A stretch of DNA of 28,639 bases from Candidatus Eiseniibacteriota bacterium (GTDB taxonomy: Bacteria; Eisenbacteria; RBG-16-71-46): positions 1 through 28,639 of the forward strand of contig JANLWX010000123.1 in NCBI GenBank assembly GCA_031364845.1. The letters run 5' to 3'. Below the pieces are notes generated by a model, which saw only the letters and a list, made by a program, of their open reading frames with translations, searched no databases and had not been told where the DNA came from. The position numbers were made by a program, and so were the translations under genes. Below, one piece after another: positions 1 to 23,007 of this stretch; the stretch's first letter is position 1; every line of letters starts with the position of its first letter.

Positions 1-138
1 TGTTCGTCAGCCCGTCGGTTCGTTCCCCGCTTCCTTCAGACGCTCCCTCACGGTTGCGCCCTTGCGGTTCCCTTGAGTCCCTGTGACCAAGTCCTCGGAG
101 GACTTACACCTCCAAGTCAGCGCCCATGCTGGGCGTAC
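1..138 (-). mobile_element. Group II intron (class IIC-like), 5' end/domain I, truncated by the window edge
   Basis: Minus strand from 138 reads GTACGCCCAGCATGGGCGC...GGAGGTGTAAGTCCTCC...CGCAAGGG...TCTGAAGGAAGCGG...CTGACGAACA. This is in register with the class IIC 5' end pattern (GTGYGCCCGGCATGGG...GGTGAGAGTCC...CGCAAGGG...TCTGAAGGAAGCGG...CTGAGGAACA), and a hairpin lies immediately 5'. RT ORF and domains V/VI are outside the window. Confidence 0.85.
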
Positions 139-19329: not shown

Positions 19330-20133
19330 ATGACCGCCTTGCTTCCACGCTCCGCCGGATTATTCTCCGGCGCGCTGGCGACCGCTCTGCTGGTTGCCAC
19401 ACCCATTTTCGCCGCCAACTCGTTCGTTCCTGTGCGCGCGAATTCGCCTGCCCTCGGTGACAAAGAGGAGCATGTCACCGGCGGCGCGCTCGACCTGCCG
19501 TGGCTGAACGGCTTCGGCGTATCGAACAACATGCAGCCGCTGACGCTGGCGCCCGAGCATCCCGCCTACAACAACCCGTCTGGTGACCACACCGTGGCGA
19601 GCGCGACGAACTCGATCGCCCCCGACAGCGGCGGCGTCATCCTCACGGCCACGGATCCCGGCGGCGTCGCCGACTACATTTGGGAAGGCTGGGTCTTCAC
19701 CGGCGACGGCAACACGCGCCGCGGCCTCGTGGTGCGCGCCGATCCCAACAACCAGTTCACCTCGTGCTACCAGTTCGTGGTTCAGTCCGGCCTGTTCCAG
19801 ATCAACTTCCGCAGGCTCGTGAACAGCATGCCAACCACACTCGCCACCTGGTTCGCCAGCGAACTGCCGGCGGGCTCGCTGCCCCAGAACACGTGGCACC
19901 AGATGAAGGTGATCGCGGTCGGCTCGACGTTCCGCTGCTTCATCGACGGCCACGAGTTCACGTCGACTCCGATCGTCGACGCCACGCTGCCCACGGGATG
20001 GCCAGGCGTCTACAACTTCCGCTTCGATCTCGGCGGCGTTCCGTTCCTGACGGACGATCTCATCATGACCGACATCCGTAAGACGCCGGTGGCGCCTTCG
20101 ACGTGGGGCCAGGTGAAGGCGCGCTGGCGGTAG
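19330..20133 (+). CDS. Secreted protein, ConA/lectin-like (DUF1080-like) domain, C-terminal STWGxxK tail
   Basis: AGGAG SD; signal peptide; GLVVRA, NTWHQMKV.AVGS.FRCFIDG, D...PTGWPG; ends TPVAPSTWGQVKARWR. Confidence 0.78.
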   Translation: MTALLPRSAGLFSGALATALLVATPIFAANSFVPVRANSPALGDKEEHVTGGALDLPWLNGFGVSNNMQPLTLAPEHPAYNNPSGDHTVASATNSIAPDSGGVILTATDPGGVADYIWEGWVFTGDGNTRRGLVVRADPNNQFTSCYQFVVQSGLFQINFRRLVNSMPTTLATWFASELPAGSLPQNTWHQMKVIAVGSTFRCFIDGHEFTSTPIVDATLPTGWPGVYNFRFDLGGVPFLTDDLIMTDIRKTPVAPSTWGQVKARWR

Positions 20134-20161: not shown

Positions 20162-20199
20162 CGCGAAGCCCGCACCTCTCCAGAGGCGCGGGCTTTGCG
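20162..20199 (+). terminator. Terminator-like hairpin after the secreted-protein genes
   Basis: CGCGAAGCCCGC-A-CCTCT / AGAGG-C-GCGGGCTTTGCG inverted repeat, about 30 nt after the stop. Confidence 0.6.
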
Positions 20200-20240: not shown

Positions 20241-20270
20241 TTGACTCGCGATCCCCGGTCTCGATAGATT
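20241..20270 (+). promoter_or_regulatory. Sigma70-type promoter of the small RNA unit
   Basis: TTGACT-N18-TAGATT with A-rich upstream sequence; predicted TSS ~20276-20278. Confidence 0.65.
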
Positions 20271-20297
20271 TCTCGAACGCGGAAAGGAGGTGGTCCA

Positions 20298-20342
20298 TTG
20301 ACTGATACGCGCAATAGGATCGCGGAGGTGGCTGTCCGCTAG
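20298..20342 (+). CDS. Putative 14-aa peptide MTDTRNRIAEVAVR
   Basis: TTG 7 nt after AGGAGG; TAG stop in a hairpin loop; too short for the ORF track. Confidence 0.5.
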   Translation: MTDTRNRIAEVAVR

Positions 20343-20416
20343 GACGGCCCCGCACCTGGCCTCCAAGGCCAGCGACCTGCTGGGTCGTCCCGCGAATCCC
20401 AGCAGCTGACCGGAGT

Positions 20417-20449
20417 GGCGGGGGATGGGCGACCGTCCCCCGCCTTCTC
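20417..20449 (+). terminator. Intrinsic terminator-like hairpin closing the small RNA
   Basis: GGCGGGGGATGG-GCGA-CCGTCCCCCGCC (12-bp stem, GNRA loop) followed by TTCTC. Confidence 0.65.
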
Positions 20450-20620
20450 ATGGGCTCCCGGCTGTAACCCTCCCCGTTACGGGTGACACTTTTCGCGGTT
20501 CTCCGTGACACGTTGCGGCGAAACCAGGTCCGCACGCGGCTGCGGGAACCGTCGCCTCGCCCTTTGTCCGGCAAGCACTTGAGGCCGCGCGCTCCCCGCG
20601 ATCGCGACCGTGTCGCTGCG

Positions 20621-20636: not shown

Positions 20637-20783
20637 TTAGCCATCCGCGGCCGTCTCCACATGGGAGGAGGCGGCCGTCCCCATCTGGCTGAGCTGAAAA
20701 GGCGCGGACTCCGAGCCCCCCTCAAAACGCTGATCGTCGTCGCGTGGAAGAACTCACGCGGCAGCGGCGTAAGGAGGGGCACG

Positions 20784-21737
20784 ATGGACATCCGACCGCA
20801 ATCCTCGTCCTGGCCCGCGCGCTTGCGCGACTCCGATCCCCGCTACTACCAGATCGGCGCCCTCTCGCTGCTGCTCACGTACGGCGTCATGGGGCTCGGG
20901 TTCGGGATCGGCGCGGCCCACGTCTTGACGGTGATCGGCGCGGCACTCGCGACGCAGTTCGCGGCCACGCGGCTCGCCCGGCTTCCGCACTTCGATCCGT
21001 TGAGTGCCCTCATCTCGGGCATCGGGCTCGCCACTCTGCTGCGCACGTCCTCGCTGTGGATCGCGGCACTGGTCGCCGTGATCGCGATCGCGAGCAAGTT
21101 CGTGTTCCGCATCGACGGGCGCCATGTGATGAACCCGACCAACGGTGCCCTGGTCCTGATGCTCGCACTCGGCGCCCCGGTGTGGATCTCGCCCGGGCAG
21201 TACGGCCACGTCACGTTCGTGGCGCTCGGGATCGCGTGCATCGGCAGCGTGGTCGTGAATCGCGCGGCGCGCAGCGACGTGACGTTCGCGTTCCTCGGCG
21301 CGTGGGCCGCCATCCTGTTCACGCGGGCACTCGTGATCGGCGAACCGCTGACGATTCCCGTGCACCGCCTGGAGAACGGGCTCTTGCTTCAGTTCGCGTT
21401 CTTCATGATCTCCGACCCGCGCACCACCCCGCGCGCACGCGCAGGTCGCATCGGGTTCGCCGTGCTGGTGGCGCTCGGCGGAGCCTTCGTTCAGTTCGGT
21501 CTGTTCCGCACCAACGGGCTGTTGTGGTCGCTCGCGCTGTGCTCGCTCGCGGTGCCGCTGATCAACCGGCTCGTGCCGGGCGAGCGCTACGAGTGGAATA
21601 CCGTCCGTCCCGCACCGGGTCACTCACCAGGAGAACCTCATGAACACGAACGCGAAACGCGCCCGGATGTTGCGGGCGACGGGGCTCGCGATGGCCGCCT
21701 GCCTGGCCATGCTGCCCGCGCCGCAATCCGCCCATAG
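20784..21737 (+). CDS. RnfD/NqrB-like (NQR2 family) membrane protein, stand-alone
   Basis: DPRYYQI, ASKF...GRHVMNPTN, FFMISDPRTTP; many TM helices; SD AAGGAGG before ATG 20784. Confidence 0.8.
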   Translation: MDIRPQSSSWPARLRDSDPRYYQIGALSLLLTYGVMGLGFGIGAAHVLTVIGAALATQFAATRLARLPHFDPLSALISGIGLATLLRTSSLWIAALVAVIAIASKFVFRIDGRHVMNPTNGALVLMLALGAPVWISPGQYGHVTFVALGIACIGSVVVNRAARSDVTFAFLGAWAAILFTRALVIGEPLTIPVHRLENGLLLQFAFFMISDPRTTPRARAGRIGFAVLVALGGAFVQFGLFRTNGLLWSLALCSLAVPLINRLVPGERYEWNTVRPAPGHSPGEPHEHERETRPDVAGDGARDGRLPGHAARAAIRP

Positions 21738-23007
21738 CTTCTGCGGATTCTACGTCGCCAAGGGCGATGCAAAGCTGTTCAACAACAGCTCGCAAGTGGT
21801 GCTCGTACGCGACGGCGATCGCACGGTGCTGACCATGATGAGCGACTACCAGGGCGACCCGAAGGAGTTCGCGGTCGTGATCCCGGTCCCGAGCGTGATC
21901 CAGAAGAGTCAGGTTCACATCGGCGATCCGGCCGTGGTCGATCATCTCGACGCGTTCTCGGCGCCGCGGTTGGTCGAGTACACCGATCCCAATCCGTGCC
22001 CGTCGGCGGACCGAAGGGTGTACGAGATGAGCATGGCGCCGGGAGCCGTCGCCCAGAGCGGCGGCCTCCACTTTCGCGGCGGCCGCAAGGGCGAGGTCAA
22101 GATCGAGGCGAGCTACACCGTCGGCGAGTACGACATCCTCATCTTGTCGGCGAAATCCAGTTCCGGGCTCGAGCGCTGGCTGATCGACAACGGCTACCGC
22201 ATTCCCGAGGGTGCGAACGCCGTGCTCGCGTCGTACCTCAAGCAGAACATGCGGTTCTTCGTGGCCAAAGTGAATCTCGCCGAGCAGCGCAAGCTCAACC
22301 TCACGAAGCTGCGCCCGATCCAGGTGGCGTTCGAATCGGCGAAGTTCGTGCTGCCGCTGCGGCTCGGCATGGTGAACTCGACCGGCACGCAGGATCTGTT
22401 CGTCTACGGCATCACGAAGCGCGGCCGCATCGAAGCGGTGAACTACCGCACCGTGAAGCTCCCGTCCGACGTCGATGTGCCCGAATACGTGAAAGACGTG
22501 TTCCCCGACTTCCATCGCGCGATGTTCGCCGAACAGTGGCGCAAGAACGGCCGCGACGTCGTGCTCACCGAGCACGCGTGGGACATGGCGTCGTGCGATC
22601 CGTGTCCTTCGGAGCCGCTCTCGCACGCGGAACTGCGCGCACTCGGCGTGTGGTGGGTGCCAGCGGACGCGCCGTATCTGTCGCAGGGCGAGACGTTCCT
22701 GACGCGCCTGCACGTGCGCTACGACCGCGCGCACTTTCCCGAGGACCTCGTGCTGCAGGAGACCGCCGACCGCGAAAACTGGCAGGCGCGCTACGTCGTC
22801 CATCATCCATATGCGGGCACCGAAGATTGCCCGGCGGTGGCCGCGTACCGCCGGCAGGTGCGTGAACGTCGCGAGAAGGAAGCGAGGAATCTCGCGGACC
22901 TGACGGGATGGCGGATCGAAGACGTTCGCACGCGGATGAGCGTGAACGACGTCTGGTCGCGGCCCGAAGAGAATCTGACGTGGTGGGAACGGTTGTGGGG
23001 GAAGTAG
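21640..23007 (+). CDS. DUF2330-family exported protein
   Basis: Signal peptide then FCGFYVA, FAVVIPVP, SAPRLVEY.DPNPC, VGEYDI.ILSA, LPLRLG, CDPC, TRLHVRY; AGGAG SD. Confidence 0.87.
   Translation: MNTNAKRARMLRATGLAMAACLAMLPAPQSAHSFCGFYVAKGDAKLFNNSSQVVLVRDGDRTVLTMMSDYQGDPKEFAVVIPVPSVIQKSQVHIGDPAVVDHLDAFSAPRLVEYTDPNPCPSADRRVYEMSMAPGAVAQSGGLHFRGGRKGEVKIEASYTVGEYDILILSAKSSSGLERWLIDNGYRIPEGANAVLASYLKQNMRFFVAKVNLAEQRKLNLTKLRPIQVAFESAKFVLPLRLGMVNSTGTQDLFVYGITKRGRIEAVNYRTVKLPSDVDVPEYVKDVFPDFHRAMFAEQWRKNGRDVVLTEHAWDMASCDPCPSEPLSHAELRALGVWWVPADAPYLSQGETFLTRLHVRYDRAHFPEDLVLQETADRENWQARYVVHHPYAGTEDCPAVAAYRRQVRERREKEARNLADLTGWRIEDVRTRMSVNDVWSRPEENLTWWERLWGK

Follow-up and report, generated by a model that had tools for sequence, protein, structure and literature searches.

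The window, by which we mean the whole 28,639-nt stretch of Candidatus Eiseniibacteriota DNA that was analysed, carries on its forward strand a predicted stand-alone RNA of about 175 nt (20276-20452), delimited by its fold and by the Rfam model for Ms_IGR-5 and with putative ends. A pattern scan places a sigma-70-like promoter upstream on the same strand (-35 at 20241, -10 ending at 20270), with one match as against 0.0 in shuffled sequences. The RNA closes with a terminator-like hairpin predicted from the fold (20417-20450, plus strand; stem-loop 20417-20444), which has a 12-bp stem and, in this copy, a weak U tail. A terminator scan returned no match at this hairpin; T runs close the RNA in near relatives. 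The fold of 20276-20452 has a z value of -4.65. One 151-nt contig of depth 2, from a sequencing run only guessed to be RNA, covers 20317-20442 and is taken neither for nor against expression. BLAST found no second copy of the RNA in its own genome, and Rfam gave no match at the locus at gathering level.

The gene upstream (19330-20133) encodes a predicted secreted protein of 267 residues, which had no match in a Pfam search and ends in a TWG-x-VK-type tail, presumably of the type known from Eisenbacteria and related phyla. A strong hairpin with a short T run (window 20162-20199) closes this gene and insulates the promoter of the RNA. Downstream (20744-23007) lie a gene for an RnfD-like membrane protein and then a DUF2330 gene; the former is preceded by about 330 nt of its own upstream sequence beyond the RNA. 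The contig end (window 1-57, minus strand) holds a truncated group II intron D1-D4-3 match (41 bits, Rfam cut-off 32).

Inside the RNA an open reading frame of 14 codons (20298-20342, plus strand) runs from TTG (20298-20300) to TAG (20340-20342). It is headed by an extended Shine-Dalgarno sequence, SD1 (20282-20297, plus strand), which is predicted to form a 16-bp duplex with the 3' tail of 16S rRNA (-28.4 kcal/mol) and whose GGAGG ends 7 nt 5' of the start. A second, internal element, SD2 (GGAGGTG, 20324-20330, plus strand), spans codons A-E-V, ends 9 nt before the stop and forms a predicted 7-bp duplex with the last 11 nt of the tail (-14.0 kcal/mol). No 3' end of a 16S gene turned up for this genome, and the tail was borrowed from fetched loci (L191, with an identical tail in L190 and L195). 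A first-pass annotation of the same DNA had described the frame, SD2, a stem around the stop codon and a CACCT at 20353-20357, and all of these coordinates are right.

Relatives were collected from GTDB with a pattern consisting of SD1, a gap and GAGGTGRC, which fixed neither start nor stop and gave at least 120 loci. Pooled counts rest on 192 loci that, as members of one family, are not independent samples, and include L024/L308, L233, L234, L235 and L255 from the unpublished genomes G038, G216, G233 and G263, which carry none of the claims by themselves. An in-frame start is present in 189 of the 192 (TTG 83, ATG 56, GTG 32, CTG 8, others 10) and the frames have 10-20 codons; the first start 3' of SD1 is nearly always in frame with the stop linked to SD2. 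The spacing between SD1 and SD2 is at least 35 nt, about one ribosome footprint, in 181 of the 189, though the patterns permitted about 30. A promoter-like pattern lies 5' of 106 of the 192 loci (shuffles: mean 4.4, maximum 11).

In seven members (L247-L250, L105, L141 and L173) the sole in-frame start is ATA, ATC, ATT or ACG, placed behind the strongest possible SD; these members look as if tuned to initiation fidelity. The extended SD also heads longer small ORFs of 35-56 codons with terminators (L199, L226, L268), two of them with signal-peptide-like starts.

SD1 itself raises the possibility that the RNA binds the 16S 3' tail, or free 30S subunits, as a decoy or chaperone, with the ORF merely serving to strip the RNA off. 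The 16-bp tail complement goes far beyond the needs of initiation, the SD1 pattern occurs only once in the genome, start codons are weak and the RNAs of Rfam family CC2171 have an identical head without SD2. Such a role would, however, leave both the fixed distance from SD2 to the stop and the covarying 3' domain (below) unexplained, and we consider it unlikely.

In the window's copy 11 nt lie between the GAGG of SD2 and the stop; exactly this distance recurs in 115 of the 120 GTDB matches listed, the other five lying at 8-14 nt. The first-pass annotation had regarded loss of the start or frame among homologues as fatal to its reading; both are conserved, the first ORF ending 8-14 nt past SD2 in 135 of 139 loci (the 120 GTDB matches listed and 19 relatives). 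As background, GAGGTG occurs 10-12 nt before the stop in 6 of 1881 likely genes of the window's genome. When the stop occupies the A site, 7-9 nt separate SD2 from the codon in the P site, which is the geometry of an initiation site, and SD2 would then be expected to pair with 16S rRNA. The identity of the stop varies among relatives (TAG, TAA, TGA). Termination-reinitiation at SD2 was considered and rejected, since no start codon coincides or overlaps with the stop in the column profile; a selenocysteine reading was rejected because the stop is mostly TAG.

Since the first GTDB scan had fixed SD2, searches were repeated with SD1 only, and 20 regions were chosen for a start codon after SD1 and not for SD2. 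Among ORFs of 10-21 codons found in this way, the stop has an SD2 ahead of it in 18 of 18 from Actinomycetota (30 matches), 33 of 35 from the window's own phylum (46 matches), 4 of 8 from Acidobacteriota (29 matches), 2 of 5 from Desulfobacterota (30 matches) and 1 of 3 from Alphaproteobacteria (30 matches). Most short-ORF loci without SD2 look like chance matches or CC2171-type RNAs. A membership test that does not use SD2, and is insensitive, recognised 8 of 165 SD1-only matches, all eight with SD2. In the own phylum the stop lies 10 (n=7), 11 (n=24) or 12 (n=2) nt past SD2, and at these offsets the motif is translated as GG, EV or RC, respectively. In two whole families the motif encodes GG; in three loci it encodes R-C or R-W. 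SD2 thus persists in three reading frames, and what is conserved is therefore its nucleotide sequence and its spacing from the stop, not the peptide. This is also the outcome of the comparison of peptide with nucleotide conservation that had been suggested at the outset: the SD2 nucleotides outlast the peptide.

A functional product in the form of the 14-residue peptide, with its serine-rich start and EVA end, would make SD2 a by-product of these codons and of the pairing described below. The strong SD1 would suit such a product, the EV frame is kept in 167 of 189 loci, and serine occupies codon 3 in 97 of 189 through both codon families (AGT 47, TCT 25, AGC 18), which allows for some selection on the peptide. 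Against this stand the GG, R-C and R-W readings of the same nucleotides; the SD1-only members, in which no synonymous GAA or GTC was seen and the single deviation is AAG; and the free variation among relatives of both the N-terminal half and the length of the ORF. We regard the peptide as an improbable functional product.

The RNA is predicted to fold in two competing ways around SD2 and the stop. A hairpin near the start, P0 (20290-20322, plus strand), pairs the spacer between SD1 and the start with the middle of the ORF and encloses the start region (probability 0.98 for pair 20295-20318); it has partial covariation only. The predicted ground state of this copy further contains a local hairpin (20330-20349, plus strand) with the stem 20330-20337/20342-20349 and a loop (20338-20341) that holds the first two bases of the stop codon. 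The claim that the stop begins in a hairpin loop is confirmed by this hairpin, which is part of the minimum free energy fold with a central pair probability of 0.998. Across the family it is present in 138 of 191 loci (mean -11.3 kcal/mol), as against 110-131 (-8.2 to -9.5 kcal/mol) in 40 controls: the stop-in-loop hairpin is strong here, and its family-wide enrichment is modest. Pairing of AGGTG with CACCT, which had been offered as a separate alternative, turns out to extend the same stem past a 4-nt bulge, at a cost of about 4 kcal/mol (-92.0 as against -96.2) and with a pair probability of 0.0025.

The rival of the local hairpin is a long-range helix, all elements of which lie on the plus strand. 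The 3' strand of P1 (20402-20411), which ends in CACC in the family, pairs with 20327-20335, a segment made up of SD2's 3' half and the codons after it; the 3' strand of P2 (20384-20394) pairs with the last sense codon and bases past the stop, as seen in a constrained fold (-90.0 kcal/mol) and by covariation in the family. Between P2 and P1 lies a conserved C-rich bulge with an AATCC core (20395-20401), in which AATC is found in 79 of 116 aligned loci and which is predicted to be unpaired (mean 0.72). Variable positions are fully paired in 76 of 110 loci for P1 and in 67 of 110 for P2, with shuffle means of about 42 and maxima of 54-55; these shuffles ignore kinship and so overstate the covariation. 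The alignment was anchored by a hidden Markov model with two registers permitted and covers 110 of the 192 loci; of the other 82, 76 lack a match to the 3' motif, including a second RNA subtype described below, and six were dropped. With a cruder pattern anchor P1 stays above the shuffles and P2 mostly does not. Of 118 loci, 58 favour the long-range fold and 40 disfavour it, and in this copy it lies about 6 kcal/mol above the local fold (-90.0 as against -96.2). The long-range helix and the local hairpin are thus rival folds, and it is the former, not the latter, that has covariation support in the family. Either would hide SD2 until a ribosome opens it. Only one locus in 110 has a U of P1 facing the A of GAGG, and therefore the long-range helix does not explain the conservation of SD2.

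Several actinobacterial loci, among them L073, L092, L094 and L180, have an extra 3' hairpin with a GTCC loop complementary to a conserved mid-ORF GGAC; a pseudoknot between the two that competes with P0 is possible. This hairpin is absent from the window's copy. In Acidimicrobiia and their kin (L079, L092, L099, L147, L159, L185) the inner loop of the long-range helix has a short segment complementary to SD1, which mimics the 16S tail and offers an internal lock for SD1.

These folds would also permit a translation-gated small RNA, in which a ribosome held at the stop opens P1 and P2 and the released C-rich 3' strand pairs with the SD sequences of mRNAs or binds a protein. The covariation of P1 and P2, the conserved and predictedly unpaired bulge and the two folds within about 6 kcal/mol of each other in this copy are all compatible with gating, and C-rich seeds are common in bacterial sRNAs. 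The conservation of the 3' strand is, however, largely explained by its pairing with SD2, and when the stop region of this copy is blocked in the prediction, the freed 3' strand refolds into a local hairpin. A gated sRNA is therefore a doubtful candidate, though one to be kept in mind.

The covariance model of Ms_IGR-5 (RF02471) matches the locus end to end (20277-20451) with 27.1 bits and E 3e-4; because this is below the gathering cut-off of 45, the locus is filed as a distant relative. CC2171 (RF01867) reaches 26 bits, below its cut-off of 75. Ms_IGR-5 and the locus share the order of their motifs: extended SD, internal GAGGUG, bulge, CACC strand and terminal hairpin. Among 20 pattern loci scanned with the Ms_IGR-5 model, three actinobacterial ones scored 95-98 bits and one acidobacterial one 47.7, and among 15 further loci one from the own phylum (L290) scored 54.5 bits, which passes the cut-off. 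A profile of 117 GTDB loci, none of them from Eisenbacteria or Krumholzibacteria, finds this locus as its sole match in the 4.6-Mb genome (E 2.3e-11), and without SD1 the same profile gives E 0.0025. The locus is homologous to Ms_IGR-5 through these intermediates.

Relatives were found in at least nine phyla. The GTDB matches listed are mostly from Actinomycetota, and include Acidobacteriota, Desulfobacterota, Ignavibacteria, Planctomycetota, Leptospira, Alphaproteobacteria, Sumerlaeota, Krumholzibacteria and Eisenbacteria. Within the own phylum 71 of 101 genomes contain the SD1 pattern, usually as a single match, and some of these matches are chance. The Rfam model for Ms_IGR-5, run over 21 own and related genomes, gave two weak matches and none above the cut-off. 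In viral contigs a loose pattern gave 26 matches, none with the architecture, and a stricter pattern none at all. The second subtype, with an LDS..EV(A/T)SS peptide and a different 3' strand, is found in L317 (genome G001, of the same genus) and L309-L329 and is widespread in genomes of the own taxonomic family. The window's RNA is of the EVAVR subtype and is sited elsewhere than the copies linked to ribD; the differences in subtype and site suggest replacement or transfer.

Ms_IGR-5 is the RNA named IGR-5 or ncMSMEG15794c in M. smegmatis, ncMab10731 in M. abscessus and SLIV_16488 in S. lividans. It is expressed in mycobacteria and streptomycetes and has no known function. For S. coelicolor, locus-tag arithmetic leads us to guess that scr4389 is the copy. 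Two other proposed counterparts, scr1906 and ncRv0810c/ncRv10810c, were set aside, no tie to this RNA having been established. According to published reports, the RNA is transcribed in S. lividans (PMC8079986), a relative in S. avermitilis is a bounded sRNA with its own promoter and terminator, mapped as a separate transcription unit (PMC8780764), and the M. smegmatis RNA was detected and is NAD-capped (PMC10454040; 10.1101/2021.12.14.472595). Ribosome-protected reads lie on Ms_IGR-5 in two mycobacteria (PMC4974804). In the M. abscessus table the relative has 3737 RPKM in Ribo-seq as against 70 in RNA-seq (PMC4974804 supplement 2) and tops the 36 ncRNA rows both in Ribo-seq value and in ratio (53; next 12.5), while the ratios of many tRNAs in the table are higher still and, as the authors warn, footprints arise on most ncRNAs (PMC4974804). 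Our literature searches turned up neither the ORF nor SD2 in any description; they did not extend to the original family reports, and supplementary lists of small ORFs could hold one.

The neighbourhood of the RNA would permit one further reading, a leader-peptide attenuator of the downstream operon that encodes the RnfD-like membrane protein and the DUF2330 protein. SD-like sites have been reported near the stops of leader peptides in attenuators (PMC5737721, citing its ref. 16), the U tail is weak in this copy and ribD lies downstream in eight loci of the own order. Yet among 47 scanned loci Pfam names the downstream gene in 35; this gene runs on the strand of the RNA in 20 and convergently in 15, and apart from the eight ribD loci the downstream functions are unrelated. 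The ORF has no run of a single amino acid, the terminator hairpin persists in every predicted fold with a ribosome block, and the Streptomyces relative is transcribed separately, as noted above. Attenuation is accordingly very unlikely.

On balance we favour the view that the ORF is the track of a ribosome-holding mini-mRNA, which loads a ribosome at SD1, re-grips it through SD2, at a conserved 10-12 nt ahead of the stop, and holds it after termination. The RNA would be made from its own promoter and ended by its own terminator, both of them predicted here. SD1 would bind the 16S tail, and the mostly weak start (TTG, GTG, sometimes CTG, ATA or ACG) would slow initiation. Elongation over 12-20 codons would then unwind P0 and the helix that hides SD2. 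Once the stop enters the A site, SD2 would pair with 16S rRNA, as the geometry of the sequence suggests. Release of the mRNA would wait for the ribosomal subunits to split, a behaviour with an in vitro precedent on another mRNA: an SD before the stop, there with 8 nt between GGAGG and the stop, makes release of the mRNA 50-fold slower, and the delay lasts until subunit splitting, after which release is rapid; that study leaves the effect of spacing open (PMC5737721). Since fewer than 35 nt hardly ever separate SD1 from SD2, a ribosome at the start and another at the stop would have room to sit end to end.

The putative purpose is most likely to tether ribosomes and to report the speed of recycling through an open or closed 3' domain. 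More broadly, and tentatively, this may be a multi-phylum housekeeping RNA that docks two ribosomes and switches its fold with recycling capacity, as a recycling sensor or tether; we see this as possible rather than probable. Two considerations weigh against a long hold: the stop lay 8 nt after GGAGG in vitro and lies 11 nt away here, and release is rapid once the subunits have split, so by analogy the hold may last seconds. The amount of RNA in M. abscessus, about 70 RPKM, is little for a bulk store of ribosomes. The idea that the ORF might hold a ribosome at termination had already been put forward in the first-pass annotation. The distance from SD2 to the stop fits 16S pairing at termination and speaks for it, whereas the stop-in-loop hairpin on which it also drew is only modestly enriched in the family. 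That interpretation is partly supported overall; it missed the stand-alone RNA related to Ms_IGR-5 and the conserved long-range helix with 20392-20411.

SDs acting at termination are known mainly from model mRNAs and attenuator leaders. If an SD at the start and an SD at the stop form a conserved unit, this RNA would be a natural and widely kept case. Comparison with known systems places it as follows. The analogies drawn earlier with the tag frame of tmRNA and with the prfB frameshift site rest on a short frame that ends near a hairpin and an internal SD near a stop, and both fit poorly. Unlike either, the ORF has an SD and a start of its own and a variable stop, and it shows neither a conserved slippery codon nor a continuing frame; the SD spacing in prfB-type frameshifting is much shorter. 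At the locus ARAGORN predicted no tmRNA gene, Rfam gave no tmRNA match and no tRNA-like domain was found. CC2171, a Caulobacter sRNA, resembles the RNA in its extended SD, in a short ORF whose start codon follows after 7 nt, and in its terminator; it is expressed and is described as of unknown function (10.1101/2022.01.24.477521). True members above the cut-off (L201, L206, L212), in contrast, have ORFs of 23-25 codons without SD2. SD2 is present in 1 of 30 alphaproteobacterial SD1 matches, a profile from SD2 onward finds none of the 30, and 29 of the 30 match only the 5' head or nothing. By sequence, CC2171-type RNAs share only the loading module, a 5' module that would join two Rfam 'sRNA' families as translated mini-mRNAs. 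The SD-bound post-termination complexes described in vitro have, as here, an SD upstream of the stop at an initiation-like spacing; those cases are a model mRNA or a cis leader, whereas here the unit is a stand-alone, multi-phylum RNA with an SD-hiding helix (PMC5737721). The closest relation is to Ms_IGR-5, whose whole model is matched: the head, the internal GAGGUG, the AAUCC-type bulge and the CACC strand are all shared, and so is their order. The present copy differs in being shorter, in an SD-start spacing of 7 nt rather than 10-12 and in lacking the extra 3' hairpin. Rfam files Ms_IGR-5 as a non-coding sRNA of Actinobacteria, and the ORF, SD2 and the distance from SD2 to the stop are absent from the available parts of its accounts; the relatives described here extend the family to at least nine phyla.
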